A stretch of DNA of 64,000 nt, from NCBI GenBank assembly GCA_041665305.1, contig JBAYJD010000002.1, forward strand, positions 10,068 to 74,067, written 5' to 3'. Numbering within the stretch: the stretch's first letter is position 1; each line of letters begins with the position of its first letter. Source of the stretch: Elusimicrobiales bacterium. Its GTDB lineage: Bacteria; Elusimicrobiota; Elusimicrobia; Elusimicrobiales; UBA9959. Under the pieces are notes generated by a model. It made no database searches. It saw only the letters and a list, made by a program, of their open reading frames with translations, and had not been told where the DNA came from. This document shows, one piece after another, positions 1-63,896 of the stretch. Both the position numbers and the translations under genes were made by a program.

Positions 1-125
1 GATCGTACAGCGTTATGGTGACTTCGGCGTTGTCCGACAGCGTGTAAGCTATAGCCGTCTTGCCTTCCGCCCCGCCTTTTCTCGGGTCGAACGGATTGGG
101 ATAGTTGCGCACATTCGTAAGCACG
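1..125 (-). other. Start of an NYPNPF-type C-terminal beta-sandwich (T9SS type-A CTD or FlgD Ig-like pattern), truncated by the window edge
   Basis: VLTNVRNYPNPFDPRKGGAEGKTAIAYTLSDNAEVTITLYD runs to coordinate 2; NYPNPF is encoded at 89-106. It matches the widely seen consensus NYPNPF(N/D)P...T.I.Y.L.....V.(L/I).(I/L)YD. Such domains are normally the last ~80-100 aa of a protein, so the stop is probably a few tens of codons left of the window. Confidence 0.7.
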
Positions 126-30100: not shown

Positions 30101-33100
30101 AGCCTGATAGGGCGCCAGAATGGAGGACGAAGGCTTGTTGACATCGTAAACAAATTCGCGGTACACCGCCCCGGCGGCGCCGACCGGAGTGATATTGCCG
30201 GCCACATCTTTAGCCCACAGTTCTACTTTATAGCGTTTATTGGGGTCCAGAGCCGGCGCGGAAAGATCCCACGGATTGACCGCGTTGACTATCAGGAAGG
30301 TGGACCCCGCCACGCTCCACTGGCCGCCGTCCCATCTGGCTTCCACGGCCCGGTCCGGCAGCAGCCTGGAGAGCTCGGCCTTTACCGGCGGCACTATGCC
30401 GGCCGGAGCGTCGGCCGCATTGCCGGTCAGCTGGGTTATGGGCCGGATGTCGCTGTAGAAAGCGCCGGTCCCGGACATCGGGGTGGAGATCGTTATGGTC
30501 GGATAGTTGAAGTCCGAAGTGACCGAGACGGCCTCGGGGGCTTCCTGGTTGCCCGCCTGGTCGAGACCGGCTATTGAGAAATTATACACCTGGTTATGCG
30601 TGGAGATGACCGGCATGTCGTAGCCGACCGGAGGATAGTTCCAGGCGATAGTGGAGGCGGAAACCGTGAAGTCTACAGACAGTTCCACCACGGTCGGGGA
30701 GCTCCAGCCGAGAGCCGTAGTGCCTTTCCAGTACCAGGTATCCGCCCCGTAGGTGTAATAGATCCGCAGCTTAAGTCCCGACGCGCCGGAAGCAAGGCCC
30801 GAGGCGCCGCCGTAGCTTGTGCCGGAGAGCTGCGGGATGGAATTACGGATGTAACTGCCGGCCGTGGGCGTGGAAACCCTTGAAACGGGCGGGGTGCCGT
30901 CCACCACGAAAGAGCGGACGGTGAGCGGGTCCTGCATATTTCCGCCGTTGACGCCCATAGGCTCGGCCTTGTCGAAAGCCCTTGCCATCAGGGTATAGTT
31001 CTTGTCGGAGATCCAGTCCCCGGAACTGAAGGGATAGGTCCAGGTGTCCGTGCCGTTGACCGTCTGCCAGGCCGCTTCGGAAGAGATGGCGTTGGTGAAG
31101 ATAGAACCGTTCCAATAGTAAGTGGAACTCCCTTCCAGATAACCCAGGTTGATCTGCACCTTGTTCAGCTGATCCGGAGAGAACGGCAAAGGAGTATCTG
31201 CGGCGGTGCCGTTGAGGGCCGAAGCGCCGTTAAGGACCGAAGGCTTGTAATTGCCGGCGGCCAAAGGCTGGATTATACCGGAAGTCGGCGGGGTTTTATC
31301 GCAGATAAAGGTTATGGAGGAAACCCCGTCGGCAAACCCGTTCTGCGTATTACCGGAGCGGTCCACGGCCCGCACCTGGAGAACATACAGGAAACCGCTG
31401 TTAAGCGCCGCGTCGAAGCCCGCCGGAGCGTAGGACCAGGTATCGGTGCCCGCCACCACATTAAAGCTGGAAGAGAAGCTGTCGAACCCGGCGCCGGTCC
31501 AATATTTAGAGCCGTTGTAGATCTGGACTTCCACCCTGTCGAGGTCCGACTTATAATTGGGCAGATTGGAGCCGGGCGGGTCGAACGCGGTGCCGTTTAT
31601 GCCGGAAAGACTCCTGAACACCTGCCTGTCGGCCGGGAAACCCAGGTAGGCGTTGGGGGTGCTGGTGTCGAAGATCATGATGCTCGACGACGCCATGCTG
31701 TTCTCGTTGTTCTCGATATTGCCGGCCTTATCCCTGGGCAGCAGGAACACCCTGTAACGGCGGCCGTCCCTGAGGGCGGGATTCACCAGCGTCGCGGTGG
31801 ACCAGTTGACCGTGGCCTGCGGGGTATAGGCGGTTTCGATATTGGTGGTGGCGGAGTCGAAAGCGGAGCCGTTCCAGTAATAGCCGCTCTCCACATCTTT
31901 TATCCTGACGGACACCATGCCGCCGAATTCCTTCTGGAGCGAAGGCTGGGTTATATTGCCTGGGTCGGTGGCGGTGCCGGAGAGGGTCGGCATGGATCTT
32001 ATGAACTGTCCGACCGGGGCCGAAATAAAGCCTATGGGCTTGGTATTGTCTATCACGATCCTGAGCTGCGCGGGACTGCTTTCGGCCTCGTTGGAGGAGT
32101 TATAGCCGGTCACGGTTATGGTGTAAGAGGCGTTATCCACCGTGAAAGCCGCGGCGCTGTTTATGCCCTGGTTCCAGGAATTACCGTCGCGGCTGACAAA
32201 GGTATAGGTGTCGGAGTCCACCCAGTGCTGGGAGGGTTCATACCACCAGCTCGCGGCCCCGATCAGCCTTTGCAGGCGGATCTGGACGCTGTCCACCGCC
32301 CTGAGGTTGGTGCCGATACCCGCGATGTTCAGCACATCGGCGGGTCTGAAATTTTTATCATTGGCGCCGGCCGGGGTCTGGATCGTGGTATCCGCCTCCG
32401 GGGTCTGGACAGTGAAGGAGATGTCGGCGTTCTCCACCGTACCCGGAGATTTTTCGTTCGCGGCCTTATCCACCGCCAGGGCTATCACATTGTACTGGGA
32501 CTGGTTTATCCAGTTTATGGCCGAGGTGTTCCAGGTCCAGGTGCTGGGCTGGGCCACATCCGGATTATGCGCGGTTATAGTTCCGGTGGTGAACCAGATC
32601 CGGTTATTGGGATAGACCCCTCCGGGACAGGCCATGAAGCTGTTGAACAGGTTGTTGTAACATCTGGGACTGCCTTCGCCGCTCGTTTGTTTAAGCGAGA
32701 TCCTCACCACTCCCGGATCCTGCAACTGCCCGGGGAAAGTATCATAAGCCGTGCCGGTTATGGCGGGCACCGCGGTGACGCCGCCTACCGGCGCCGTGGC
32801 GAGGGAAACGGGCAGCGTGGTATCGCCGGTAAAGTAATTGGTGGTGTATGCCGTCTGAAGATTTGAAACTATATCGTGGACGCGGCTCATGGCGTAATAG
32901 GTGGTGCCGTCGGCTATGGCCCCGGCCGGCAGGTTATAAGACCAGGTGCCGGAGGAGACGCCCGAGAACGAAGCCGCATACCACTGCCTGGCGCCAAGGT
33001 TAAACCCGGAACCGTCCCACCATTTTTCATCCGAGAGCCGCTGGATGGCCAGTTCCACGCCGGACGCCGGATCAATGCCGGACTCAAAGTCACGCGGAGA

Positions 33101-36100
33101 AGCCCAGCCGTGCAGGTTTTCCACGGAGTCGTCGGCCGTACCGGTTATGGCGGGCACAGCCCCGATAAAGCTGTTGTCGGACGGGAAGGTTATTTTGGAG
33201 GCCGGCGTGGTAAGGTCCACCACGAAGGTGAAGGTGGAGAAATAGGCGCCGGAATAATTGTTCTGCGCCTGGTCGCGCGCGTACTGGTTTATGTAATACT
33301 GGTAGCCGTCCTGCTGGGAGGCCGCGCTGATATTTTTGGTCCAGTCCGGGAAGATAAAAGTGTCCGCGTCGTAGAAATCAGGAGCGCCCAGCCAGTTGCC
33401 GTTATAAAAGTCCCAGTAAGCCCCGCCCGAACGCCGCAGCCGCAGCTTAACTCCGCTCACGCCGCTGGGCTCGTTAAGACCGTTCTCATTATCGGAGGCT
33501 GTGCCGATTATAAGGCCGGTCGAAGCCGCCAGAGCGTAAGTTTGCGGCACCGTGACATCGGTCAGGGGTACGGCGCTGTCGAAGGCGAAGTAGTGCGCGG
33601 GGTTGCCGTCCGCCTTCAGATTGCCGTTGAACTGGACCTCCGTAGGGGTATCCATCCAATTGCCGGCTTTATCCACGGCCCTGACCCAGACCGAGATCTT
33701 TGAATTGTTGACCGGCGCAAGAGACGGCAGGGCGACGGACCAGTTGCCGCCCGCGTAGGCCGCGGTGCTCCAGCGGGTGTACTTTGTCTCGGGAGTGGTA
33801 TCCCAGTCATCCAGGGTATTCGTATAGGTGCCTTTCCAGTAGGCGTTAAAGGCGCCTCTGGCCTTGACCATGACATGTACCTTGTCTATGGCTCCGGAAT
33901 CGCCGGTGGTGCCGTACAAAGCGTTCACGGAATTGAAGTAGGCGCCGTTCGCCGGCGCTGTGGCGACCGCCACAGGCTTCTGGTTGTCGAACCTTATCAA
34001 CCGGCCCAGCCCGGCGGGGACGGAAGCCGGCTCTCCTGTATTGGGCCCGAATTCCCTGTTCTGCGCCAGATCGTAAGCCCAGGTAACGGCGAAATAATCA
34101 TTGGTCCCCAGGCCGCTCATGACCGACCGCACCTGGGCCGGCACGCTCCAGTTCCAGGACACCACCGGATTGCCCGAACCGTAAGGGCCGGTGTCGACGG
34201 CGGTCTCGAACCAGTAGGGATTGCCTCCGTCGAACGCCCCGCTGCCGGCGCTCCACCAGCCGCCGGTGTTAAGTTTCAGGGCTATCTTGACCGTATAAGT
34301 GCCTAGCCTGGCCTCGTAGGTCCTGTCGTTAGCGGCGTCGTCGCTGGCGGTGCCGGAGACGGACGCAAGCTGGTTGACATATTCTGTCGAGGGACTGGTT
34401 ATGGTGGAGGTCGGTTTATCCAGGTCGAATTTTATAACACGGGCGGCCGCGGCCGAAACATTCCCGGCCTCATCCTCCGACCGCGCTTCTATCTTATACT
34501 TGTGATCGTTGACGAAGACGATATTCGCGTTGTTGTAGTTCCAGCCGGCGGCCGGGCCAAGTGCATTAAGCCACAGCGGGGCGGAGCAGGCCGTAAATGA
34601 AGCTCCGTCGAAGCAAAGACTGTAATCATTGGTCTCGCCTATAACATCGCTTATAGCCACCGCCACCGTGCTGACCCCGGTATGCGCCGAACTTTGCGCG
34701 CTGGCGGAACCACCGGTCACCGGGGTGGAGACCAGCACGCTCGAATAAGTGGCGCCGTCCAGCGGGTAAGTCAGGGAAACCGTCGGAGCGGTCGTGTCGT
34801 AAGTCACGACATAGGTGGAATAAAGAACGGAGTAATTTCCCGCGTAGTCAAGGGCGCGGGCCTCTATGGTATAAGCCGCGTCGTCCTTAAGCATCGCGGA
34901 CGGCACGGTGTAATACCACGAAGTGGCGCCCAACCTTGTAGTGGTTATCCAGTTATTGTCGGAAGCGGCCCAGGCCGCGCCGGTCCAGTATCTGGTCCCG
35001 TCCACTCCCGTGGTGGAGATCCGGAGATCGGTCCATTTGTGCCCCGACAGGTCCGCGTCGACCGTTCCGCCTATGCCGCCCAGCGCCCTGACGGCGGGGG
35101 CCGAAGGCGTGGTGATCAGCACGGACGGCGGGGTATTATCCACTATAAATCTCGCGGAGGTATAAGGCCAGGTATTCCAGTTGCCCTCGCCGCCGTCGTT
35201 CGAAAGCCGGGCGTCGTCCATGGCCTTGGTTTCAAGGACATATTCCCTGTCGCCGGCCGGCCAGACCACGGCGCCGGTGTATTGCCAGGTCCAGGACGGG
35301 GCCGAGCCGGTAAGCGCGGTGTTAAGCCAGGCCGTCTCGGAACTGACCGCGCTGGTGAACGCCCCGCCGTACCAGTAATAAGTGTCGGGAGACTGTAGAT
35401 AAGAAAGCCTTACCTTGACATCGGCCACCCCCGCGGAATTGGCGGCTGGATTATCGGAAGCCGTGCCGTTAATGTCGTCCTGGCCGACGGACCCCGGCTT
35501 ATAGCGGCCGGCTATGCCGTTGCCGTCGTCGACGGGATAGATTATGACCGGGGACGGCGCCGTCTTATCCACAGTGACGACCAGCGAGGACTGGCCGACC
35601 GCGAATTGGTCCTGGATGTTCCCGGCCAGGTCCCTGGCCCTGGACAGGATAAGGTACCTGCCGCCCGTGGCCAGGACGCTGTCCAGCCCGGCCGGGGAAT
35701 AAACCCAGGAAGTGGCGTCGGGCGACAGGGTCCCCACCGTGTTATTGACATCATGCCAGAGCGGCGTTTCACCGGCGTCCGTAAAGTCGGCGCCGTCATA
35801 CCACCTGGGAGCCGCTCCCGTCAGCCTGCGCACGGCCACTTCGACCGCGGTGCTAAGCCAGGCGTCGTAAGCAGTACCGGCCACGGCGGAGAGGCTTCTG
35901 AGGCCGGATTTATTGGCGTCGACCGGCAGGGTTATCCTGGCCGTGGGGCTGGTAATATCGAAGGTGAACGCCTTGTCCGTGGCCGTGCCGGTGTTGCCGG
36001 CCTTATCCACGGACACCAGCTGGACGAGGTAACTTCTGTCGGCTTCCCAGGCCGCGCTGTTCTGGAAATAATCGGTGGTATAGGAGGCCACGCCGGCGTT

Positions 36101-39100
36101 GACCGACGCCGTCAAATAAGTTTCCGGCGCGTCCGCTGTAAAGGTGGAGGAGGCCCAGTTCCAGTATTGCGCGGATTCCTGGCGTTTCACCCTGAAGTAA
36201 GTGTTCACTATGAGGCCGGGCGGCACATCGCTCACGCTTCCGGTCAGGGAGCCGAGCGATCTGACGAACGCCTTGGAGGGATTCGTGACGGCGGCCAGCG
36301 GCGCGCTCGAATCGATGACGAAAGTCCGCCCCGCGCCGGGAGTTTCCACATAGCCGTTGCCGGTGGCTTTGGTTTTTACGCGATAGGTCCTGTTGCCGTT
36401 CCACGCCTCGGACGCGACCGAGGTGCTGCGCCAGATGGTTCCGTCAAAAGAATCCACCCCCAGATAATAGGCCGGATTGTCCTGCGCGGACAGCCATTGC
36501 AGGCCGCTCCAGACCAGGTCGTCGGCGTTATTCTCCACCCCGTCGGGCCCGAAATCCGTTATCCTGACGGCCACCGTGCTGGAATAAACCGCGGTGCCGG
36601 AAATGACGGGTTTCGGCGTCGGCGCCCAATGGGGCGTAGCCGCCGTCGGATCCGTTATAACCGAAACGGGCGGAGGTGTTTTGATGGTAAACAGTATATG
36701 CGGGCCGGGGCCGGTGGAACCCGGTTTTGCCACTTCATTGTTGGCTTTATCCACGGCCTTGGCGAAAATGCGGTAATCTATGCCGTCCGTGCTGGTGATC
36801 CAGGACGGGGTGGAAGCGCCAGTGGCCTCCCATTTATCGCCGGGCAGCACCGAGGCGTCATAGAAGATCTCGGAAGCGGACAGCCAGTTGCCGGCGGCGC
36901 GGTCCCAGTAACCGACGGGCGTACTTACCTTGTAATATGAAACCCTGACCTTATCCACCAGGCCGGGAGCCGTATCGGAAGCCGAACCGGAGACCACCGA
37001 CAGCTCCGTCTGGATCACCGAACCGTCGGCCGGATAAGTCACGGTGGAGGTGGGCGCGGTAAAATCGGCCTTGATGTTCGTGACGGTGGAATAGACCAGC
37101 TGGTAGTTGCCGGCCTTGTCCTGGGCGTAAGAATTTATCTCGTAGGTTTCACCCGTCTGCCAGGGGTTGGCGTTCAACTGCCACCAAGTCGCGGAGGCGC
37201 TCAGGGTTCCGTAGGTCGGTATATGGTTCCAGACCTGCGGCGCGCCCTCAAGCGTCCAGCTCGAATCCAGGACGCGGTAATAATGGTTGGCGTTCGGGCC
37301 GCTGAGCTGTTTAACACGCACAAAAAGGTCCTTCACGATGCCGTTGGGAGCGTCGTAAGAGCCGCCGGTGATCTTTCCGGTCTGGCTTATATAGCCGCCG
37401 TCCGACGGATATGAAACTGCGCTCGTCGGACGGGACACATCGTAAACGAAACTGCCTTTCAGCGCATAGCCTTCCTGGTTCTGGGCGGCGTCCCAGGCGT
37501 TGGTGTAAACGCTGAAAATAACGCCGTTGTTATTGTCGTACATGCCGTCAGCCGGCGTATAAGTCCAGTTATCGAACGACCCTGAGGGAGCGGCGTACAG
37601 CGTCGGAGGCGCGCCTCCCCAGATCGCGCCGCCCTGCCAATACTGGTTATCGCTCGACCTTCTGATATAGATCATGACATTGGACACACCCGAAGAGCCG
37701 GGATCGGCGCTGGTACCGCCGATAGTTATGCCTTTATAGTTGAAATGCTGATTGTCGGACGGATAGGTAACCGTGGAAGCGGGCGACTCGGTATCATATC
37801 TGAAGGTGGCGGTGGTGAAGGTCGTATCCCAGTTGCCGGCGGTATCCTTCGATCTGGCCCTTATGGTGTAACTGACTCCGCTTTGCCAGGTCGAGTTCTG
37901 GATATTGTAGGTCCAGCTGGCCGAGGTCTGGTAAATCTCGGTCTGGGCGGGGACCCAGGGCGCCGCGTTGATATTGGCGCAGGATGTCCATACAGGGAAC
38001 AAACCGGGATTGTAACACGCGGAAAGCTCGCTCATAACGGCGAACTGCACCTGTGAAACGGCGATATTGTCCCCGGCGGTACCGGTAATGTCCGGCAGCG
38101 TGTTGTGGTTGGCGCTGCTCGGCAGGGTTATGACCGTAACGGGCTTTTCATTATCGAAGGTCACCGTCACACCGACTCCGGCCGGCACATCGCCGTTCTG
38201 GGGCTGTCCGGAGTTGGGCCCGTACTCCCTGTTCTGCGCCAGATCGTAACCCCAGGTCACTATCCTGTAATTGGAGTTCTGGTTGTTCGCGTCCGAAAGA
38301 TAGTTATTGAGCGCCGTCGGCAGATTATAGGTGAATTTGCCGGTGTTGACGCCGGTCGTACTGAGATTGGCTTCGTACCACGACGGATTGGAAGCGGAGC
38401 AGTTGGTCCCGTTCCACCAGCCGGTTTCGGAACCGGTCAGCCTTTTGATGGCGACCTTGACCGTATAAGTGCCCAAACCCGCTTCATAGTTCCAGGAGGA
38501 GCCGGTCAGATCATCCGTGGCCGTGCCCCGTATCTGCGTAAATCCGGTGGTGTACCCGGCCAGCGGGTAGGTGATGGTGGAAGTGGGCTTTATGGTGTCG
38601 TAATTGATCGTCACGGCTGAAACCGCGGACGGATTGTCCGCGAAGTCCGCGGCCTGGGCGTCTATCCTGTACTGGACATCGTTCGCGAAAGCCAGGTTCG
38701 CGCTGTTGTAGGTCCAGTTGTCCCACACGCCGCCTACTTTGGCCGCCGTAAGCCAAGAGGGACAGGTTCCGAAACCAGTACCGTTAAAGCAGGCCTCGCC
38801 CGCGCCGCCGGGGTCCCTGATTATCTGCACGGCCACCGTGCTGACGCCGGTGTTCGCGGAGGTCTGGTCATTGGACGAAGTCCCGGTTATCGGAGTGGAG
38901 ACCAGGATCTGCGAATATGCCGCGCCGTCATGCGGGAATGTTACTAAAACGGACGGAGCCGTAGTGTCGTATGTGAACACATAAGTGGAGTATAGGGTGG
39001 AATAATTTCCGGCGTAATCCTGCGCCTGGGCCTCGGCGGTGTACACGGCGTCGTCCCTTAAGATGGAGCCGGGAACCGTGTAATACCACGAGGTCGCGCC

Positions 39101-42100
39101 AAGTTTGGACGAATGTATCCAGGTATTACCGGAAGCTGTCCAGACCGAGCCGGACCAGTATCTGGTCCCGTCCGGGCCGGTGGTGGAGATGCGGAGATCG
39201 GTCAGGCTGTGTCCGGCCAGATCGGCGTCGGCGGCGCCGTAGATGGAGAAAGAGGCCTTCTGGGCCGAAGCCGTCGGGCTGGTTATCAGAACGGAGGGAG
39301 GGGTATTGTCCACTATAAAGTACCGCGTCGCGTACGGTTCCACTTCCCACACGCCGTCCCCGCTGCCGTCAGCCAGCCGGGAATCGTCCATGGACCGGAC
39401 TTCCAGCTTATACTCCCTGTCGCCGGCCGGCCAGAGGATGCTGCTTGCATAACTCCAGGTCCAGTTGGGCGCTGAGCCGGATTTGGAAGTGGGCTGCCAG
39501 GCCGTGGCTTCCGTGAGGGTCCCGGAACTGAAACCGGTCCCGGCGCAATAATAGGTGTCGCCGTTCAGCAGGTAAGACAGCCTTATATATGAAGCGGAGA
39601 TATCGCCGTTATTCTGCGCGGGGGCGTCCACGGCCGTTCCGCTCAAATGATTGGCCGGGAACTGCCCGATGTTCGCGGGGGCATATCTGCCGCTGGAGCC
39701 GTCGCCGTCGTTCGCCGGCCGCGAGATGGCCGAGACCGGCGCGGTCTTGTCCACCTTTATGACCAGCGAGGACACATTTACGCTGAACCCGCTAAGCATA
39801 TTGCCGGCCACATCGCTCGATCTCACAAGTATGAAGTACTGGTAGCCGGATTCGAATTTATCGTCAAAATTCGCGGGAGCGTACACCCAGGTCGTCGCGT
39901 CGGGGGACAGGTAACTGCTTCCGGCGCCGTTCACGACATCCAGCCAGTGAGGCTCGGAAGCCAGGTCGCTGAAAGAAGTTCCGTCGAACCAGAGCATGGT
40001 GCCGGACAGCCATTTTTGTATGGCTATCTCCACTTTCTGGTTCTCCCAGTCGTCGGCCGCCGTACCTGAGATGGACGGCAGGGACCTTATGGCTTTGGCG
40101 TTCTGCGGCAGAAGTATCCTGGTGGTCGGGGAGGACAGGTCCAGCTTGAAGGTGACTTCCGCCGCCGTGCCCGTATTGCCGGCCTTATCCACCGACACCA
40201 GTTGCACCACATAATCCCTGTTCTGTTCCCAGGCCTGGTTGTTCAGGAAATAATCGGTGGTATAGCTCGCCACGCCGCCGACCACGCCGGCCGGAAGGTA
40301 GGTCTCGGGGGCGTCCGCGGTAAAGGTTGAAGCGGCCCAGTTCCAGTACTGCGAGGCTTCGTCCCGCTTGACGCGGAAATAAGTGTTCTGGATCACGCCG
40401 GGCGCGATATCGCCGACGCCGCCGATCAGGCCGGTCATGGAATTTACCCATCTGCGGTCGGGCGCCGTCACCGCCGCGGCCGGAGCGCTTGAGTCTATGA
40501 CGAACAGCCGTCCCGCGCCCGGAGTTTCCTCATATTCGTTGCCCGTATGAACGGCCTTGGACTTGACGCGGTAAGTTCTGTTGCCGTTCCACTGGTTCGA
40601 CTCCAGGTCTATCTGCCATACACCGTTCCCGGGATTGAAAGAATCCACGCCGAGGTAGAGATCGGGATTAGCGGACGCCGAGAGCCATTGCGTCCCGTTC
40701 CAGACAAGATCGTTCCCGTTCTCCAGGCCGTCGGCCCCGAGATCCGTTACCCTCACGGCCACGGTGCTGGAATAGACAGAGGTGCCGGAAATGGCCGGCT
40801 TGGGGTTCGGGACCCAATGGGGCGTGTTCGCGGACGGCGAGGTTATGCCGGAAACGGGCTGGGGGGTTTTAAGCGTGAATTCCATGTACGGCCCGTCCCC
40901 GACGGCGCCTGGCTTCGCGACTTCCAGAAGCGCCTTGTCCACGGCCTTGGCAAAAACCCTGTAAGCGATGCCTCCCACCGAAGTCACCCAGGTCGGGGTC
41001 GAAGAGCCGGTGGCCTCCCACTTGTCGCCCGCCAGCAGCGTCGCGTCATAAAAGATCTCGGCGCCTGAATTCCAGAGCCCGGAGGCGCGGTTCCAGTAAT
41101 TGCCGTCGCAGATGCCCGAAGCGCAATAATAGGAAACCTGTACCTTATCGAGCTGTCCAGGGGCCGTATCCGAAGCCGAACCGGAAATAACGGTGACCTC
41201 GGTCTGGAGAATGGAACCGTTCACCGGGTAAGTGACCGTGGAGGTGGGCGGCGTAAAATCGGCTTTTATCAGGGTAACGGTGCTGTAACCCAGTCTGTAA
41301 TTATCCGCCTTGTCCTTGATGTTCACGCTGATATCGTAGGTTTCTCCGGATTGCCAGGGAGTGGTGTTCAACTGCCACCAGGTCGCCGAGGCGCTTAATG
41401 TGCCGTAGGGCCCGCCCTGGTAGATCTCGTTCCAGACCTCGGGGACATTTTCCAGGGTCCAGCTTGAATCCGACACCCTCCAGTAATGGTCGGGCTTTGA
41501 GCCGGCGGTCTGCTTGATCCGCACATAAACCTTCTCAACGATGCCGTTGGGCGCGTCATAGGCGGTACCGGTTATTTTTCCGGCCTGGCTGATATAGCCT
41601 TTGTCGTACGGATAAGTCACGGCGCCGGTGGGCTTGGAAATATCGTAAACGAACTCCGCGTCCCTTACGGTGCCGAGATTGCCGGCGCCCGTGCCTTCCT
41701 GGTTCGTGGCCAGGTCGTCAGCCCTGGTAACTATCCGGTAAAGATGGCCATCCGTCCATTGCGGGGGATCGTAAACCGCGTTCCAGGTCCAGACCCCTCC
41801 GACGATATTACTGAACAGCCATTTGTCGCCGTCGGTATCGGTCCACCCCATGCCGGTCCAGTAGGTCGTACCGCGGGTGAGATCCTGAACATACATACTT
41901 AATCCGACGACCCCGGAGCCGCTGCTCGGATCGGTATAGGAACCGGTTATGGAGGACGTGGAAAGCTCCGCATGATGCGAACCGTCCGCGGGCGAAACCA
42001 CGGTGGATTCCGGTTCGGTGTTGTCGAACTTGAACGTTACGGTGGAATAGACGGCGTCATAATTATCCACGGAATCCCTGGCCCGAGACTCCAGGCGGTA

Positions 42101-45100
42101 AGTGTAGCCCGAACTCCACGGGAAAACGGAGGCGTCGAACGAGAATGTGCCGCTAGACTGGGACGGCGCGTAGGTGAAAGCGGCGGTGGACCAATAAAGT
42201 TCCGGATCGGAAGCGGATTCCCACCGGCGCGCGACGGCGTTCCAGTAAACATTCCCCACGGCCCGGTAGATCCTTATTTTCACGGCCTGGAACGGATCGG
42301 ACAGGTACATCTTCCGGTTATCCGAGGCGGTTCCGGAAACGGCCTGCACCGAATTCTGCGGCTGGGCCGCGGGCAAGGTTATAACGGATATGGGATTCGT
42401 CCTGTCTATGTAAAAGACCGCGGCGGAAGAATCAGGTCCCTGGTTGGCGCCCGTCTGAGTATTGTCCTTCGACCGCGCGCGCGCCGTATAAGTGTACGAA
42501 CTATGCCAGACGGTGTCCGCGAAGCTGTACGACCAGTTCACTGAAACCGCGCTGTAAGTGGAATCCGCCGTGAACCACTGCGAGGAACCGGCGCTCCAGC
42601 CGTTGACCGGGTCCCAGTACCAGTTGTTGCTGTCGCGCTGGAGCGAGATCTCAGAATTGCCTATGGGGATCACGCTGTACAGGTCGGTGGAATTGCCCTC
42701 TATTTTGGAAAGCGACCTGTAGACCGCGGTGTTCTGCGGCGTTGAGAAAGACGAAGAAGGGCCGCTGGTGTCGTATCTGAAGGTCCGAGAGGTATTCTGA
42801 GAAGCGTCCGCGTACCCGAGCACCGCGGGCAGGGCTTCGCTGTTGGAAGCCTTATCGTAGGCGCGGGTGCGCACATTGTAAACCTTGCCGTCAGTCCAGG
42901 CCGGCAGGGTCGAATAGGTCCAGGCGGAAGTGGAAGGCATCACGGCCGTATTAAAATATTCGTCCGTGACCCAGGTGCCGGAAGTAGACCACCAGTGCCA
43001 GTAATAGGTGGTGGCCTGGTTAAGATCGGCTATGGAGATCTCCGTCCGGTCCACGCCGGACAGATTGTCGCCGGCCGTGCCGCTCAGCTGGGTAAGGTCG
43101 TTGTAAGTAACCCCGTGCGCCGGAACGGTTATCCTTGAGGAAGGGTTAGTCTGGTCGAATGTCACGATCACGCCGTCAGTTTCGTCCGCGGCCGCGGTCT
43201 CCACATCGGCGCCGCCGTTATAGGCGCAAAGGCTCCTTATGCGGTAAACCTTGTTATTGGTCCAGGAGAAGCCCACCGTATAGGTGGCGCTATAAACCTT
43301 ATAATTGCCTCCGCCGAAACTTTCAAAGCCGCCCAGGGCCGCGTCGGTCCAGTCCTGTACCACCGTTGAGTCGGTTATATTCTCCACCCTAACCCTGGCC
43401 CAGGCCGGAGCGGCGGTCGAACCGCGGGAAAGTTTAAGATTGATCTCGGGAAGAGCGGTCAGATAAGAGCCGTGCGCCGGATTTGAAACATAGGAATAGG
43501 GCCAGACCCCTTTTTTCATGTAGATCGAGCGCCCGGCGCCGGCGGTTTCAGTCTTGGAAGCGGTCAGGGCCCTGGACCTTATCCGGCCTCTGAAATCTTC
43601 CGCGCCGGTGCCAAAGGCCGGCGGGAGGGCGTTTCCGGAGCAGACGAAATATTCTTTTCCGGAACAGGCGTTCCAGTAGCCGGTATCGCCGGACGCCCAG
43701 GAACCGTTCTCCCAGGTCCTGCCGGCCTGGTCGTATATATTGATCGCCACGGAAGTCACCGGCGTTTCGCCCCAGGCCTCGCCGTGCACAAATCCCAGCC
43801 TGTCGGTATAGGTGGTGTTGTCACCCGCCTGATAATCCCTCAGGTCCAGAAGCTGCGACTGCGGAACCGTGACATCGTACTGAAAAGTGGAAGTGGCAAG
43901 CGTCACATCGTAGTTGAGCGCCTTGTCGCGCGCGCGGGAGACGACCCGGTAATACCTGCCGCTGGTCAGTGTGGAAGGCGGCGCGAACGACCAGTTCCAG
44001 GCGTCGGTCCCGGACGACATGGTCCAGCCCGGGGTGACCCAGGTATTGGGCGTGGAGGTCCAGCCGGAACCTGTCCACCAGTTGTAATCCGCATCGTTAC
44101 CCGTACCCCTGTCTATGATCTGGAGCTGCACTAGATCCAGGCCCGTGCCGGGATACGGGTCCCTGGCCTGCCCGGTAAGATACTGCCATCTGCTTATTTT
44201 GGTCGCGTCCGCCGGGGTAAGCACCGCCGAAGTCGGGAGCTGCACGTCGTACTCGAAATAGTTCTCCACGGACGGGACCTGCTGGTTCAGCGCCGTATCT
44301 TTGGCCTTCACCTGCACCCTGAACCTGTGGCCGGAGCCGCCGTTGGAAAGAAGCGAAAAATTCGGCGTGGAATAGGTCCAGGACCGGCTCAGGTCCCCGG
44401 CTGAGCCCGCGAGGGTGACCGTGCGCCAGAGCGGCGTGCCGCTCTCCTGCCAGGCCGTGCCGTTCCAATAAGTGGTGGGCCATTGCAGCTCCCCGGCCGG
44501 ACCCAGCGCCCGGATCCAGACCTCGACCCCGCCGTTGGGAATGCCGCTTTTATCGTCGGTCGAAGTGCCCTGTATGGAGGCTATGGCATGGTTTGAATTA
44601 TTGTAATAGCCGTTGGCCGCCGGCAGCGAAACGCCGCTGGCGGGGTTCTGGGTGTCGATGGTGAAGGTAACGGTCGTTATAGCCGACTGCCACAACCCCA
44701 CATCGTCGCGCGACCTGGCGCTCAGCCTGTAGGAGGACGACTGCCAGTTGATGCCGCTGTAATAAAAATCGGCGGTTTTGACCGGAAGGTTCTGTAAATC
44801 CTGGGAACTGAACCAGACATCAAAACCGGGATCGTCCTCCCAAAAAGATCCGTTCCAGTACTTGGAACCGGTCGTATCTTTCAGACACAACTCCAGCTTA
44901 TCCAACCCCTGATTATCGGACGCGGTGCCGTAGATATTCCAGGAACCGGCGCTGTACACGCCGCCGTTGGCCGGGAAAGTGGCTATGGCCACGGGAGGCG
45001 TTCTATCGATGGTGAACGCCAGTTTGGGCGTGGAACCCGTATCCAGCGAATTGTTTTGCGCGTTCCCGGCTTTGTCGACCGCCTGCCAGCGGATCTCGTA

Positions 45101-48100
45101 GTTATAGTCGTTGATCAAGCCGGTGGAAAGATTTATGCTCCAGGCATGCTCCCACCTGTTCTGTCCGCCGTTCTCCGTACCGGCGTCAAGAACGGGATTG
45201 AGCGGCGTCTGTCCCCCCCATCCTGATCCGGTGAAGTATTTATCCAATTGCACATTGTAGAGGGACAGGTTGACCTTGTCCATGGAAGTGCCCACCGGGC
45301 TGTAACGGGAAGTATCCCAGGCCGTGCCGGTAATGGAAGAAAGTTCGAAAAGGACCGCCCCGTCGGTCATGCCGGTAACGGCGGCGGTGGGTTTGTCCAC
45401 ATCATACCAGAACTGCTGGGTCGCCACGGAACCCGTATTACCCGCCGGAAGGCTGGAATCCGTGCCGCGCACGCCCAGTTCATATTTCCTGCCGCCGACG
45501 AACGCGGCGGAAGAAATATTCATGCGCCAGGTTCCAGCCGAATAGATGCCGGTATTATAAACCACGGAGTCGGTCCAGGTCCTGGTGGTTTCGTTCCAGT
45601 AGGTCGCCCCGCGGGTCAGGTCCCTTAAACGCACCTCCACCAGCGCGGTGTCGGTATCTATGGTCCCCTGAGCGGTGGTCTGGAGGCCGAGCGGGGCGGA
45701 AAGATACCCAAGCGAAGCCGGCTCCGTTATGACCGCGACGGGCGCCACCCGGTCATAAGTGAACACGGCCGTCGAAAAAGCGGTTTCGTACCTGAGATAA
45801 TCCTTCGCCTGGATATTCACCTGGTACTGGGTGGGCGGCGAACCTACCCAGGCAAAAGCGTCGGTATAAGACCAGTTCGTGGTCCGCAGGGCCAGATCCG
45901 AACCCAGCTCTATCCAGGAGGAAGCCTCGTCGGCTGTAAAATCGTCGGCGGCGGCGTTCCAGTACAGCAGATCGGTGTTGCGCCTGATGCGCACGCGCAG
46001 GGAATCTATCCGGACATTATCGAACGCCGTACCGGAGACGACGGGCAGGGAGGAGTACCTGGACCCATCCGCGGGCGCGGTGCTCCTGGAGACCGGCGCG
46101 CTGGTGTCCCACCAGAAGGTCGCGGTGGAACGGCTGACCTCGGTATTGGGACCGGGGGTCGAGGTAATATCTATGCCGGCGGTGGTGAGGTAATAGGTGG
46201 TACCGTCGGTCATGTCGGCCGGGGCGGGCAGAAGGGTGGTTCTCGACCATAAAACATCCGTCCCTAGCGGCGGCTGAAGATCGTTGGGGCTGAACCACAA
46301 ATTCGGATTTGACGGTATGGGCCCCGGGGTCCAGCCGGCGGAGGTGTCCCAATATTTCTCATCGGAATTCCTCCACAGCACCCATCTGACGCTGTTGATG
46401 CCGCCCCGGCTGTTATCATGCGCCGTACCGCCTATCGCGGTAAGCGAATTTATCACGGCGTTGTTCACGGGAGCCGTAGACTGGGAGCTTGGAGCCGTGG
46501 TATCGTAATAAAACACCGTGGTGGACCAGTTAACGCTGTAACTCCCGGCGGCATCGACCACCCGCCCCCATATCGTATATCTGGAGTTGCTGCTCCAGCC
46601 GGGATTGGTGTAGGTCCAGTTTACCGTCGCCCCCTTGGCTCCGGAGGCGGGACCGGTGGACACCCATTTTGCGTAATTATATTCATCCCCCGTAGCGTAA
46701 ACAGCCCACCCGCCGGGGGTCCAGTACCTGTTATCCGCCCCCTCTTCTTTTATGAAGAGACTGACCCCGTTCTGCGGTATGAACTGGTTGTCCTGCGCCG
46801 TCCCGTATATGTTCCACGCGCCGGCGCCGTACCGGCCGCCGTCCACGGGGGAAGTGGACGCCATGGTCGGAGGGATCTTGTCTATTGTAAATGTCAGACT
46901 GGGGACGCCGGGGTTATCAAGAGAGCCGGTTTCTATATTTCCGGCTTTATCGGCGGCCAGCCAGCGTATTTCGTATGTATAATCGTTTATCCAACCCGTG
47001 GACGGGGTTATCGACCAGGTATGCTCCCACCTGTTCTGGCCCGCATTAAGGGCGCCCGCGTCAAGAGCGACATTAAGCGGCGTTTGCAAGCCCCAGCCGG
47101 AACCCGTAAAATACTGTCCTATCTGCGTGTTGAAGATTGAGATGTTGACATTACCGAGCGATGAACCCACCGGACCGTAGGAGGCGGTCTCCCATGCTGT
47201 ACCGGTAATGGAGGGAAGGCCGGACAAGATCGCGCCGTCCGTTATACCCGTAACGGCGGAAGTGGGTTTATCCACATCATACCAGAACCGCTGGGTGGCG
47301 CTATAGCCGACATTGGCGGAAGGAAGATCCTGGTCGGTGGCGCGCATATAGATCTCGTACTGCTTGCCGCTGACGAACGCGGCGGAGGAGATCTTCATGC
47401 GCCAGTAGCCGGGCGAATAGATCTGCGCCGTGTTCCAGACCGCCGCATTCGTCCATGATTGCGCCGTTTCGTCCCAATAGGTGGTTCCGCGGGTCAGATC
47501 CTGAAGACGCATCTCCACCAGCGCGGTATCGGCGTCGACAGTGCCCTGCATGGTGGTCTGAAGGCCCAACGGCGCCGTGATATATCCCAGCGAAGCCGGC
47601 ACGGTCACGACAGGCACCGGCACGGTGGTATCATAGGTGAAGGTAACAGTGGTATAACTAACCTCATAATGCGGGGCCGGCAGCGTCACCCTGTCTATGG
47701 CCCTGGATTGCATCTCATAACTCGCGCCGTCGCTCCATACGCCGGCGGGCATGATGAGCGCCCAGCCGGTGGTAACATTACCCAGCACCGTACCGTTTAG
47801 AACGCTCGTCCAGGCCGTATTGGCGTTCAGGGAATCGTCGAACTGCTGCGCGCTGTTGTTCCAGTAATAACCGTCGCTCAGCCGTTTTAACCTGAGATAG
47901 ACGGAATTAACGCCGGAAGTCTGGTCCCAGGCCGTGCCGTTAATGGTGGGTATGGAGTTGTAGCGGGCGCCGTTAGCGGGCATGGTGGCGACGCTTATCG
48001 GCGCGGCCCTGTCGCAGATCGCGGTATTTGTGGAATATACCGCCTCAAAATTTTCGTGCGGATACAGCGTATAGTCGCTGGCCTTACCGTAAAAAGCGTA

Positions 48101-49897: not shown

Positions 49898-49935
49898 GAG
49901 CCTTTTGCACTCTGACGACTTTTTGATATTTCCGA

Positions 49936-49985
49936 GAAAAAGACCGTGCGCAACGGATTGCGTTCCGTTTGTCCCGGTCTTTTTC
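49936..49985 (-). terminator. A5-stem-loop-T5 hairpin between the HEAT gene stop and ATG 49897 (terminator or attenuator-like; it would be coding if ATG 50005 is the true start)
   Basis: On the minus strand: GAAAAAGACCG-ggacaaacggaacgcaatccgttgcgca-CGGTCTTTTTC. The outer stem is 11 bp (49936-49946 with 49975-49985), with an inner aacgga/tccgtt pairing and a following T-run. Confidence 0.3.
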
Positions 49986-50036
49986 AGGGCGTCTTTCAGT
50001 TTCATATTAACCGTTGCCGCCGGCCAAGCCGTACGA

Positions 50037-50798
50037 TCACTTTTTTTTCATATGCAGATCGATCCTTGCCTTTACAGCTTTATCCCCGCTGCGCTCCTTT
50101 ATGCCGCGCAATTTGTTTTCTCCATCCTCGGTCCGGCTCAGGGCGTCAAGTATTCCAAGTTTTGCGCCGGGATCCTTTTCAAGGTCGAAATCTTTTGACA
50201 GGGTTTCCGCATCGCCAAGCCTGGATAACGCCATGTAAGCGGCTATCCGCATATCCCTGTCAAGGTCGGTCCCGACTATATCCCGCAGACGCTCCAGCGC
50301 TTTCGGATCATTAAAAAACCCGAGTGAATTGACGGCCTGGATCCGTACGCCTTTATGTTTTTCGACCTTCAGCGCCGCGAGTATCCCGTTAAGCGCGCTC
50401 CGGCCGCCGGTTTTTCTCAACGCCGTTATGGCGCTTGTCCGGCCGCCGGGTTCCGGCTCGCTTATAGCGGCCCGGCTTAAAAACACCACCGCCTCATCGC
50501 TTTGTATCGCGCCCAGTTCCCGGTAAAGTCTTTCCCTGCCCGGAAGCTCTTTTTCCGCTTTGGCCGCTGAGATCTTCCCCTTGACGCCGTTATCAGACGG
50601 CGCCGCGCCAAGCGTCGTTACCGAAAAAATACCGCTGATAAAAACGATCACACAGCACACGGCCGGAAAGACCGTCCTTTCCTTCCTGGTAAAAACGGGC
50701 TCCTCAAAGCCTATATCAGCTTTAAAAAGTTCGCTAAATACGGTCCTTCTTGATTCAGCCATATAATTACCCGGCATAAGCGGATATAGCTCCGGCAC
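50037..50798 (-). CDS. Membrane-anchored HEAT-repeat (PBS-lyase HEAT-like) protein
   Basis: Track ORF of 253 aa with one TM segment (FPAVCCVIVFISGIFSVTTLG). HEAT-like repeats follow: AITALRKTGGRSALNGILAALKVEKHKGVRIQAVNSLGFFNDPKALERLRDIVGTDLDRDMRIAAYMALSRLGD. The listed start is GTG 50798; ATGs at 50777 and 50762 are alternatives. The stop is 140 nt upstream of ATG 49897. Confidence 0.75.
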   Translation of the reverse strand: MPELYPLMPGNYMAESRRTVFSELFKADIGFEEPVFTRKERTVFPAVCCVIVFISGIFSVTTLGAAPSDNGVKGKISAAKAEKELPGRERLYRELGAIQSDEAVVFLSRAAISEPEPGGRTSAITALRKTGGRSALNGILAALKVEKHKGVRIQAVNSLGFFNDPKALERLRDIVGTDLDRDMRIAAYMALSRLGDAETLSKDFDLEKDPGAKLGILDALSRTEDGENKLRGIKERSGDKAVKARIDLHMKKK

Positions 50799-51060
50799 AC
50801 ACTTAACGCCTAAAGCGCTATAAGGACGCTTGCGAACAAGCTAAACGCCAAGTATTTCACAAACGCAAATAAGCGCCGCCTCCGGAAACTCCTGTCATCC
50901 CCGGTGTTCGACGCCTTTGATAAATATCATAGTAATTATAATACAAAGATGATATTACAAAAAAGTTAATTTTTTGGGTAATTTCCGAAACCTCCCTCTT
51001 TTGCATAATTCCGGTCATAAATCCCTTCTCCCGGCCCGGCCTGGGAACGCGGCAGTGCGG

Positions 51061-51101
51061 CAGAAAAACGGCCTGACGGGACGGCGCGCGCAATTCAGGC
51101 C
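51061..51101 (-). terminator. Second intrinsic-terminator-like hairpin downstream of sRNA-like unit A
   Basis: The minus-strand RNA reads GGCCUGA-(18 nt)-UCAGGCC followed by GUUUUUCUG. The stem arms are 51095-51101 and 51070-76. Confidence 0.4.
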
Positions 51102-51102
51102 A

Positions 51103-51287
51103 ATAAAAAACCGCTTCAGCGTTCTTCGTTCCCATACAGGGCTACCGCTCCGAAGACAGCCAAAACGGCCGACCGCGACAAATCAGTTTTGATCTTCGGC
51201 AGCCTGACCCCCGCGTATATAGCGGGTCTTAGCTTTGCGCCGCCGGCTTTCGCCGGCTTTGCTATTATCGTGACATACGAACTTCGC
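51103..51287 (-). ncRNA. sRNA-like transcription unit A (~185 nt), family unknown
   Basis: It is bounded by a consensus promoter (51294-51321) and a long terminator hairpin with a T-run. The hairpin arms are 51151-51168 and 51111-51128, paired with G-U wobbles, and the A-run on plus is 51103-51110. Internal hairpins are gccggc-GAAA-gccggc and cccgc-tatatac-gcggg. There is no plausible ORF (only ATG-TCA-CGA-TAA). Confidence 0.45.
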
Positions 51288-51293
51288 GTTAAT

Positions 51294-51321
51294 ATTATAG
51301 CAGACAATCCGTATTTGTCAA
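51294..51321 (-). promoter_or_regulatory. Consensus sigma70-type promoter with extended -10 (unit A)
   Basis: Minus strand: TTGACA (51321-51316), a 16-nt spacer aatacggattgtcTGc, then TATAAT (51299-51294). The TGn extended -10 is present. Confidence 0.65.
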
Positions 51322-51342
51322 GGCCTATGCCCTTGACGAGTC

Positions 51343-51354
51343 AAACAAAATACC
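51343..51354. promoter_or_regulatory. TTGAC-N2-GTCAA palindrome upstream of promoter A (candidate operator)
   Basis: The sequence ttgacgagtcaa is a perfect 5+5 inverted repeat lying 21 nt upstream of the -35 box. A matching palindrome sits in the equivalent position upstream of promoter B. Confidence 0.4.
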
Positions 51355-51373
51355 ACAAGGCGGCCACGACCTA

Positions 51374-51418
51374 AAGGGCGGGGTGGTAAAAATTTTTGCG
51401 GCGAAAATTTTTAACCGC
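51374..51418. repeat. 45-bp A5T5-GCGGC-A5T5 element, copy 1
   Basis: aagggcggggtggtaaaaatttttgcggcgaaaatttttaaccgc matches 56819-56863 at 40 of 45 positions. It contains two self-complementary AAAAATTTTT blocks. Confidence 0.7.
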
Positions 51419-51634
51419 AAAAAAGGCCGTTTTGGCTTTCTTCGTTCTACCCTTAAGCAGGGTCGAGGCCCGAAGACAGCTAAAACGGCCAAATTACTTG
51501 TCCCGTTAGGGGCGCACCGGACACTGTCACCGCTTCAACTCCCACTCACCGTGACCACCCTACCGTTCCGACTCACTCTACCTGCCGCGCTCCTAACGGG
51601 ACACCCACTTCACCTGCTGCCACTGCTGCTTCCT
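51418..51634 (-). ncRNA. sRNA-like transcription unit B (~215 nt), family unknown
   Basis: A consensus promoter lies at 51641-51668. The 3' end is a 20-bp hairpin (51471-51490 pairing with 51425-51444, one mismatch) followed by UUUUUU (plus A-run 51418-51424). The body has a long-range helix, gtcccgttagg(a)gcgc ... gcgc(c)cctaacgggac, and is purine-rich. No ORF is present. Confidence 0.45.
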
Positions 51635-51640
51635 GAATAT

Positions 51641-51668
51641 ATTATAGCAGAAATACAAATATTGTCAA
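51641..51668 (-). promoter_or_regulatory. Consensus sigma70-type promoter with extended -10 (unit B)
   Basis: Minus strand: TTGACA (51668-51663), a 16-nt spacer atatttgtatttcTGc, then TATAAT (51646-51641). It begins 35 nt after the S41-like gene stop. Confidence 0.65.
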
Positions 51669-51678
51669 GGGTCCTTTG

Positions 51679-51692
51679 GTTGACATGTCAAC
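51679..51692. promoter_or_regulatory. GTTGAC-N2-GTCAAC palindrome upstream of promoter B (candidate operator)
   Basis: The sequence gttgacatgtcaac is a perfect 6+6 inverted repeat, 10 nt upstream of the -35 box. Confidence 0.4.
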
Positions 51693-51702
51693 AACCCCGA
51701 TC

Positions 51703-56828: not shown

Positions 56829-56863
56829 CAGTAAAAATTTTTGCGGCAAAAATTTTTAATCAC
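56819..56863. repeat. 45-bp A5T5-GCGGC-A5T5 element, copy 2
   Basis: aagggcggggcagtaaaaatttttgcggcaaaaatttttaatcac. It overlaps the RR stop codon (56860-62) and one arm of its terminator. Confidence 0.7.
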
Positions 56864-63828: not shown

Positions 63829-63896
63829 ATTGTCTCCATGCGGCCGTTCAGCCGCGCCATCTGCCGTACGCGAAGAACACGCGTTCACGGACTAAA

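Follow-up and report, generated by a model that had tools for sequence, protein, structure and literature searches.

The genome of an Elusimicrobiales bacterium contains two short tandem transcription units, designated A and B, upstream of a gene for a HEAT-repeat protein and a giant gene. The units were analysed in a 64,000-nucleotide (nt) stretch of contig JBAYJD010000002.1 (positions 10,068 to 74,067), which is referred to here as the window and to which all coordinates belong unless another locus is named. The same DNA is part of a 102-kb metagenome contig (ENA ERZ27249449 k141_148092). All features of the cassette are located on the minus strand. The end of an S41 (C-terminal processing) peptidase gene at 51703 is followed by unit B, a 70-nt spacer, unit A, about 340 nt of intervening sequence, the HEAT gene, and the giant gene. 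Unit B extends from a palindrome at 51691..51680 to a T6 run at 51424..51419, and unit A from a palindrome at 51344..51333 to a T6 run at 51110..51105. The HEAT gene (50037..50762, minus strand), the first gene downstream, encodes a protein of 241 residues with an N-terminal hydrophobic segment. The giant gene (2..50005, minus strand) starts at 50005 and runs off the window; it encodes more than 16,682 residues in the window and 16,733 residues in the full record. It is probable that the cassette consists of a cyclic-dinucleotide riboswitch that terminates transcription, unit A, and of a detached, terminated RNA, unit B, both put together from one modular kit.

Parts common to the two units

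The promoters of unit B (51641..51668, minus strand) and unit A (51294..51321, minus strand), identified in a consensus scan, are each composed of TTGACA, a 16-nt spacer containing TGc, and TATAAT. Both match the sigma-70 consensus at 12 of 12 positions and carry the TG extension, and they are the only such matches in the 64 kb. When up to one mismatch was allowed, the pattern TTGACA-N13-TGnTATAAT still occurred only at the two units, compared to 0.01 matches expected. Transcription probably starts near 51634 in unit B, 7 nt past the −10 box, and near 51287 in unit A. The palindromes TTGACATGTCAA (51680..51691, minus strand) and TTGACTCGTCAA (51333..51344, minus strand), putative operators of units B and A, respectively, are each located 11 nt upstream of the −35 box. 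The whole window contains two TTGACnnGTCAA palindromes, compared to 0.02 expected. The palindrome-N11-TTGACA layout is present in 13 further loci besides L001–L003, which are copies of the window's own locus.

The two units also share their terminators. The 21-nt terminator 5′ arm GGCCGTTTTRGCTGTCTTCGG is found in the window only at 51150–51170 and 51470–51490 (0.00 expected), and the 3′ arms of the two units are 78% identical. The unit B terminator (51419..51490, minus strand) is formed by the 5′ arm at 51490..51470, an apical hairpin, the 3′ arm at 51444..51425, and the T6 run at 51424..51419. The unit A terminator (51105..51170, minus strand), which is the expression platform of that unit, has the 5′ arm at 51170..51150, an apical hairpin, the 3′ arm at 51128..51111, and the T6 run at 51110..51105. 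Both have the characteristics of intrinsic (Rho-independent) terminators, a stable G+C-containing hairpin directly before a U-run, and are predicted to terminate transcription. A simple terminator scanner did not list either hairpin, because internal loops interrupt the stems and the apical domains are large. The motifs shared by the two units are real and far beyond chance. The original prediction, which was made from the sequence of the window by eye, had described the two perfect extended −10 promoters, the upstream palindromes, and the homologous hairpins with T-runs. All of these were found, with one correction: the palindrome of unit A had been placed at 51343–54, which is off by 10 nt.

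An assembly artefact was rejected as an explanation, since unit B is 100% identical to the window in independent assemblies from two other sequencing runs, and the tandem junction is also present in L040, a locus from a different organism with an S41 gene of about 74% DNA identity. The cassette was also considered as a mobile or repetitive extragenic palindromic (REP)-like repeat; this was rejected, as it occurs just twice in the 64 kb and in other loci is always tied to the aptamer of unit A or to the B element. In L002, an independent assembly from the same organism, the contig breaks at a position matching window 51385, just past the unit B terminator. Duplicated promoter and terminator modules may be the cause of such breaks in short-read assemblies. 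An AT-rich near-perfect palindrome (51393..51423, unstranded), which directly follows the T-run of unit B and is absent in L040, may be a second or bidirectional terminator. Upstream of the cassette, the minus strand encodes two histidine kinases and response regulators of the GerE and OmpR types (56860–57531, 57604–58767, 58870–60750 and 63049–63888). The proteins of this cluster are candidates for binding the TTGACnnGTCAA operators; in relatives, the cluster is not kept beside the cassette.

A cyclic-dinucleotide aptamer in unit A

The core of unit A is a GEMM-I cyclic-dinucleotide aptamer (Rfam RF01051, c-di-GMP-I, where c-di-GMP is cyclic di-GMP; 51195..51273, minus strand). The match scored 59.5 bits, compared to the gathering score of 35, with E = 4e-9 over the whole window, and is full length, covering model positions 1–87. 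The original prediction had pointed to structured cores in both units, including GAAA-tetraloop hairpins in unit A and a long-range helix in unit B, and these structures were confirmed: the hairpin GCCGGC-GAAA-GCCGGC carries the GAAA tetraloop of aptamer P2. It had not been able to match either core to a known RNA family by eye, which is correct for unit B but not for unit A. The search with Rfam 15 gave no credible overlap with the B core at E ≤ 10 in the window and E ≤ 1 in seven related loci.

Loci encoding homologues of the HEAT protein, 48–63% identical to that of the window, were gathered for comparison, and ten of them (L004–L013) were scanned for the aptamer. It scored above the gathering score in all ten, at a distance of 250–420 nt upstream from the called HEAT start. 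The aptamer was also confirmed with Rfam in 19 of 20 further loci checked, and the first gene downstream encodes a HEAT_2 repeat protein in nine of ten further cassette loci. At each HEAT-homologue locus, the HEAT gene is followed by a giant gene of 3,269 to 13,952 residues (16,733 when the window is included). The proposal that the units are leader elements controlling read-through into the HEAT and giant genes was thus essentially right for unit A, which is a riboswitch with a terminator.

The terminator 5′ arm, in the form of the search pattern GGCCGTTTNNGCTGTCTTCGG, was used to search metagenome contigs and identified 34 loci. The arm follows a GEMM-I-type aptamer in 32 of them, 18 of which were checked against Rfam. 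The remaining two are L051, a chance match in coding sequence, and L059, in which the upstream sequence is too short to tell. The alignment of 29 platform sequences contains a stem of 18 pairs, in which two positions free of the search pattern covary with their partners (UA, GU, GC, AU and CG). The framework shared by units A and B is the conserved expression platform of one riboswitch clade.

Position 20 of the aptamer (Vc2 numbering, assigned with the G21-C46 and C22-G45 pairs of the Rfam structure line and with PMC6140456) is an A in the window (AAU-A-GCAAAG), whereas A47 and C92 are retained. The base at position 20, a G in the Rfam consensus, is unpaired and immediately precedes the G-C pair that opens P2. 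The ligand-contacting set G20/A47/C92 is therefore incomplete, with G20 replaced by A. The combination A20/A47/C92 is present in 32 of 34 distinct units; G20 occurs only in L035 and L045, the latter of which has a glycosyltransferase gene downstream. In Vc2, G20 reads the Hoogsteen edge of one guanine of c-di-GMP, and an adenine occupies this position in GEMM-Ib riboswitches, which sense 3′,3′-cyclic GMP-AMP (3′,3′-cGAMP) (PMC6140456, PMC8835794). The G20A variant of Vc2 binds both c-di-GMP (53 nM) and cGAMP (120 nM) (PMC6140456), and natural A20 aptamers can be bispecific (PMC6140456) or up to about 1600-fold selective (PMC8835794). The c-di-GMP-I-GGC variant family (RF03167) matched the window with 55.0 bits, below its gathering score of 59, and the window differs from its consensus at the bases mapped to positions 19, 20 and 47. 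Unit A thus carries the signature base of GEMM-Ib, and its ligand may be 3′,3′-cGAMP, c-di-GMP or both. Judged by its sequence, unit A is a member of a known riboswitch class, probably with a cGAMP-type pocket, from an uncultivated phylum and with giant genes as targets. The presence of A20 suggests that cGAMP-type riboswitches reach beyond Geobacter into this phylum; such a spread was anticipated by Hammond and colleagues (PMC8835794). The aptamer-terminator linkers of the two G20 units, L035 (10089–10155 of that locus) and L045 (2806–2879), contain three or four GGG runs with 4-nt spacing, for example TTAGGGTGTAGGGTTTAGGGTATAGGGTGTAGG. The runs constitute a textbook G-quadruplex motif within a riboswitch expression platform.

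Unit A resembles the GEMM-Ib riboswitches of Geobacter (Gs1761, Gm0970 and pilM) in its adenine, which corresponds to A14 of Gs1761 and position 20 of Vc2, and in a pocket that is otherwise retained (PMC6140456); it differs from them in phylum and in the regulated genes. Compared to canonical c-di-GMP-I riboswitches, unit A has A instead of G at position 20, an Elusimicrobiota host, and a HEAT gene and a giant gene as targets. Its platform is an unusually long, conserved two-tier hairpin, and it is preceded by a perfect promoter with a fixed upstream palindrome.

The aptamer and terminator of unit A do not overlap, and the terminator is located wholly downstream, behind a linker of about 23 nt (51171..51194, minus strand). 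The aptamer ends in CCGAAGA (about 51200..51194), which matches UCUUCGG in the terminator 5′ arm with perfect complementarity. The pairing is present in all units, including that of L013, which was found independently of the search pattern. The duplex of the P1 3′ strand and the terminator 5′ arm with their neighbouring bases has an energy of −16.5 kcal/mol, compared to −24.3 kcal/mol for the terminator hairpin. In the pilM cGAMP riboswitch, which is an ON switch, the terminator overlaps the aptamer (PMC9262584), whereas in unit A the two are separate. The self-contained terminator downstream of the aptamer is instead a feature that unit A shares with Cd1 of C. difficile (PMC9262584). In Cd1, which is an OFF switch, the terminator forms alongside the ligand-bound aptamer, and the two together compete with an antiterminator (PMC9262584). 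Because the layout of unit A matches that of Cd1 and not that of pilM, binding of the ligand is predicted to cause termination. The ligand-bound aptamer would keep CCGAAGA as the 3′ strand of P1, leaving the hairpin with the U6 run free to form and to stop transcription ahead of the HEAT and giant genes. In the absence of ligand, CCGAAGA would pair with UCUUCGG and enclose the lower part of the 5′ arm; the terminator stem could then form only via a pseudoknot, and the polymerase would read through. By analogy, unit A is predicted to be a Cd1-like transcriptional OFF switch, and its terminated transcript would be about 180 nt long (51287..51105).

The B element and its arrangements

Unit B contains a G-rich 5′ tail (51634..51606) and a core (51498..51605, minus strand) in which a long-range helix is formed around a G-rich region. 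The arms of the helix (51603..51587 and 51515..51499) are 17 nt long and 94% complementary. The core holds the conserved AGUCGGAA and UCCGGU, and an inner GUCAC/GUGAC hairpin. In most relatives, a leader of 126–421 nt, composed of about 42% G and 20% C and containing a long-range helix, is located between the same consensus promoter and the aptamer. The cores of the two units had been described as unrelated; they differ in the window, but the B element is the 5′ part of the same riboswitch transcript in most relatives.

The helix of the window type, GUCCCGUUAG.GGCGC paired with GCGCC.CUAACGGGAC, is found directly 5′ of the aptamer in L028, L031, L036, L042, L046, L049, L054 and L058. With 19 pairs, this helix is 96% paired; two of the pairs are doubly changed, and one pair occurs as AU, CG and GC; slid controls were at most 51% paired. 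The other helix type is 98% paired over 15 pairs, six of them with compensatory (double) changes, and its slid controls reached at most 60%. Because the helix covaries, the B element is selected at the level of RNA. RNAalifold predicted the long helix alone, with an interior that has no conserved structure. A covariance model built from the window-type helix, R1, detected a single copy in the window, where it scored 89.4 bits on the minus strand and 33.8 bits on the plus strand, and had no matches in about 55 kb of unrelated control loci. At least 16 leaders with the other helix type were matched weakly (15–25 bits, E 0.0025–0.6), at the expected position and strand, which supports the assignment of both helix types to one family of distantly related sequences. 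In L008 (3474–3673 of that locus), the 5′ arm of the helix (..CCCATCTGG) mismatches the 3′ arm (CCAAAAGAG..), as if the copy were recombinant, whereas the related L009 and L010 are intact. The leaders of L029 and L039 begin with an additional GC-rich hairpin domain (about 90 nt, within the first approximately 110 nt after the promoter), which is not present in other loci.

The interiors and 5′ tails of the B elements are built of GCGGU-like pentamers. GCGGT was observed 174 times, compared to 16 expected (z about 40), and the spacing of its copies peaks at 5–6, 11, 16 and 21 nt. The number of copies ranges from 1 to 14 per element and from 3 to 14 in leaders fused to the aptamer. The RNAs CsrB and RsmZ carry GGA motifs, and the trp leader carries (G/U)AG repeats, which bind TRAP. 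The B family is analogous to these RNAs in having short motif copies at a spacing of 5–6 nt in unstructured sequence and in variable number, together with a strong promoter and a terminator. It differs in the motif, which is GCGGU or G(C/U)(A/G)GU rather than GGA or NAG, and in that the copy in the window is repeat-poor.

The split into two promoters and two terminators is also found in L040. Between the window and L040, the arms of the B helix are 100% identical, the B terminator 95%, the B interior 72%, the aptamer 99%, and the unit A linker 100%, compared to 42% for the spacer between the units and 54% for the region after the unit A terminator. The two arm changes of the B terminator leave its stem intact: one gives a G·U pair and the other repairs an A·C mismatch. 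The B element stands alone in two more lineages, L060–L062 and L063–L064, the S41 protein of which is 67% identical to that of the window. Downstream of the S41 gene, these loci contain the palindrome, a consensus promoter, a G-rich tail, the same helix, and a related terminator, without an aptamer; the next gene encodes a coiled-coil-like protein, not a HEAT protein. Between the standalone B terminator and the next gene, the near-identical assemblies L063 (3850–3950) and L064 (3850–3970) contain four and seven copies, respectively, of the heptamer CTTACGG.

The modules of these loci are combined as promoter-B-aptamer-terminator, promoter-aptamer-terminator, or promoter-B-terminator. The window carries the last two combinations in tandem, which explains why identical promoters and terminators surround different cores. 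All arrangements draw on one modular kit, in which the operator palindrome, consensus promoter and terminator hairpin are joined by two optional parts, the G-rich B domain and the GEMM-I aptamer. Most relatives carry the complete set as a single unit before a HEAT gene and a giant gene. As a candidate for a new RNA family, the B element is well supported; it is coupled to the riboswitch in modular fashion, and its fused, split and standalone versions provide a natural experiment on its function. The cassette is similar to tandem riboswitches in having two structured domains in series before one operon, each with a terminator. It differs from them because each unit has its own promoter and operator, and because the upstream B domain is no known aptamer and has a variable interior of low complexity.

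Unit B would be terminated constitutively and give rise to an RNA of about 215 nt (51634..51419), in which a long stem presents an unstructured G-rich, C-poor region. The RNA is probably abundant, because its promoter matches the consensus. We tentatively propose that the B RNA binds an oligomeric RNA-binding factor, as a platform or a decoy, because it combines a stable stem with variable, regularly spaced repeats and occurs both attached to the riboswitch and detached from it. In a broader and still more speculative form, the B element would represent a new class of regulatory RNA that accompanies cyclic-dinucleotide signalling, with its highly expressed stem of G-rich repeats capturing or recruiting an RNA-binding factor, whether fused to a cGAMP-type riboswitch or detached from it, while 3′,3′-cGAMP, rather than c-di-GMP, switches giant surface-protein genes off in Elusimicrobiota; we regard this complete scheme as doubtful.

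Other functions of the B element were considered and rejected. A CsrA sponge is not consistent with the distribution of GGA, which occurs 5–7 times in the copies of the window and L040 and 0–2 times in most leaders of the other type. A second small-molecule aptamer does not agree with an interior that varies in length and sequence and has no consensus structure. An exchange of partners between the arms of the B helix and the terminator was suggested by the CCGUU..AG common to the arms, but the variants do not track each other, as judged by inspection without a formal test. A processive antiterminator of the RfaH/ops, put or EAR type was rejected, since the element contains no ops core GGCGGTAG and has no match to JUMPstart or another Rfam family. 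GCGGTAG occurs 0–2 times per leader and not at all in the B element of the window. A processive antitermination element at this position is moreover implausible because it would defeat the terminator that follows it. The original prediction had reasoned that a 50-kb gene plausibly needs antitermination or attenuation control; nothing was found to support a dedicated antitermination system.

Alternative explanations and the downstream operon

Several observations count against the proposed combination of a terminating riboswitch with a detached B RNA. The invariance of the terminator 5′ arm outside the two covarying positions is a product of the search pattern and carries no weight. The core of the putative antiterminator is only 7–8 bp long, and both of its partners are invariant, so that covariation lends it no support. 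An antiterminator extended through the linker was rejected, as it was no better than those formed with shuffled linkers across 34 units (mean z 0.02). A20 alone does not fix the ligand, since Vc2 G20A and some natural A20 aptamers bind both dinucleotides (PMC6140456), and no GGDEF or CD-NTase domain, which would mark a cyclic-dinucleotide synthase, was found among the examined genes of the window and L001. The B element of the window is itself repeat-poor, with a single GCGGT. No specific alternative pairing with the B terminator was identified, and the best duplex equalled the mean of shuffled sequences. Furthermore, the operon is perhaps also transcribed independently of the riboswitch, from a conserved promoter-like AT-rich box (..TTTTTTGTAATATCATCTTTGTATTATAAT.., 50915..50974, minus strand) that lies past the riboswitch terminator and ahead of the HEAT start. 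The box is 85% identical to L040, compared to 54–57% in its flanks. Relatives (L006, L008, L011, L012 and L040) hold an equivalent AT-rich region, with TTGCGA-16-TATAAT. As judged from these sequences, the box may provide the HEAT and giant genes with a second promoter, in which case the riboswitch would modulate their expression rather than solely control it. A small open reading frame across the box was considered as a conserved peptide and rejected, because a 1-nt indel relative to L040 shifts the frame while the nucleotide similarity continues.

Unit B might instead be a cis-acting leader or attenuator, in which a factor decides whether the B terminator forms; transcripts from promoter B would then pass two attenuators, B and A, one after the other. 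The factor could be an oligomeric RNA-binding protein that recognizes the GCGGU-type repeats much as TRAP and HutP read their triplets, and riboswitches with tandem sensors and a terminator for each are known. On its own strand, the B element invariably has a gene or the riboswitch after it, it shares the expression platform of the riboswitch, and the spacing of its repeats is that expected for an oligomeric binder. However, no structure competes with the B terminator beyond the level of shuffled sequence, and the perfect promoter between the B terminator and unit A in the window and L040 would make control in series largely redundant. In fused loci, moreover, the aptamer separates the B element from the terminator by at least 100 nt. 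We therefore consider an attenuator function of unit B unlikely.

It is also improbable that unit A is an abundant standalone sponge or store of the second messenger, with the HEAT and giant genes transcribed from the AT-rich box. Such a role would have a precedent in the merRNA of Bdellovibrio bacteriovorus (PMC3627812), which belongs to the same family and, like unit A, is expected to be very highly expressed and to end at a terminator as a discrete short RNA (PMC3627812). The perfect consensus promoter and strong self-contained terminator of unit A are consistent with this role, as is the 340-nt gap, with its conserved promoter-like box, before the HEAT gene of the window. However, merRNA is defined by the lack of a conserved downstream open reading frame, whereas a HEAT gene is found downstream of unit A aptamers. 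The aptamer precedes the HEAT gene in all ten HEAT loci, and the HEAT gene is the first one downstream in nine of the ten cassette loci. Many relatives have an ATG in frame with the HEAT gene, together with a strong Shine-Dalgarno sequence, about 15 nt past the T-run, which also counts against this role.

The idea that both units are novel trans-acting, base-pairing small RNAs (sRNAs), as the original prediction had suggested, is very unlikely overall and is already refuted as stated for unit A, the core of which is a confidently matched GEMM-I aptamer syntenic with HEAT genes; a confident Rfam match was one of the refuting results that the original prediction itself had named. The sRNA-like reading of unit B was strengthened by the standalone copies in L060–L064. 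Each unit has its own promoter and terminator, and no conserved open reading frame was evident on reading the alignments, without a dedicated test; the lengths of the B interiors differ by non-multiples of three. Antisense pairing of unit B to the giant mRNA was rejected: ACCGC occurs 145 times, compared to 120 ± 9 expected, and the reverse motif is increased similarly, so that ACCGC is not meaningfully enriched in giant-gene mRNAs. Unit B has a single 12-nt complementarity to the 5′ region of the HEAT gene, and from a reading of the alignment it is absent in L040.

That unit B is a functionless, decaying remnant of a tandem duplication of the riboswitch unit that has lost its aptamer is scarcely credible: it shares paralogous promoter, palindrome and terminator modules with unit A, and its single GCGGT is far fewer than the 3–14 of fused leaders, but the split is common to L040 despite the divergence of the S41 genes, the helix arms and stem-keeping terminator are preserved there while the spacer is not, and two further lineages carry standalone elements with the same helix and consensus promoter.

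In a number of relatives, the open reading frame of the HEAT gene continues upstream to a conserved start, MFSA..., which is preceded by the strong Shine-Dalgarno sequence GGGAGGAAAAATG about 15 nt past the T-run. This start is found in L005, L006, L008, L009, L011, L012, L047, L059 and other loci, and the gene call P0005 (307 residues) uses it. The extension may be an alternative start of the HEAT protein or a leader peptide.

We know of no regulation or function described for giant bacterial genes of 10,000 to 17,000 codons. The protein encoded by the giant gene gave only weak matches to immunoglobulin (Ig)-like domains (Big_7, Big_13 and Big_3_2); as sequence matches, these are compatible with a surface protein and do not prove one. 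The preprint on giant genes does not mention riboswitches; it reports conserved pilZ genes near the giant genes of Omnitrophota. The link of a giant-gene family to a second-messenger riboswitch makes the conditions of its expression directly testable.

The S41 peptidase gene (51703–52842, minus strand), directly upstream of the cassette, adjoins it in nearly every locus (the window, L008–L013, L040 and L060–L064), including those without HEAT and giant genes. This adjacency suggests either a functional link or a very stable ancestral gene order.

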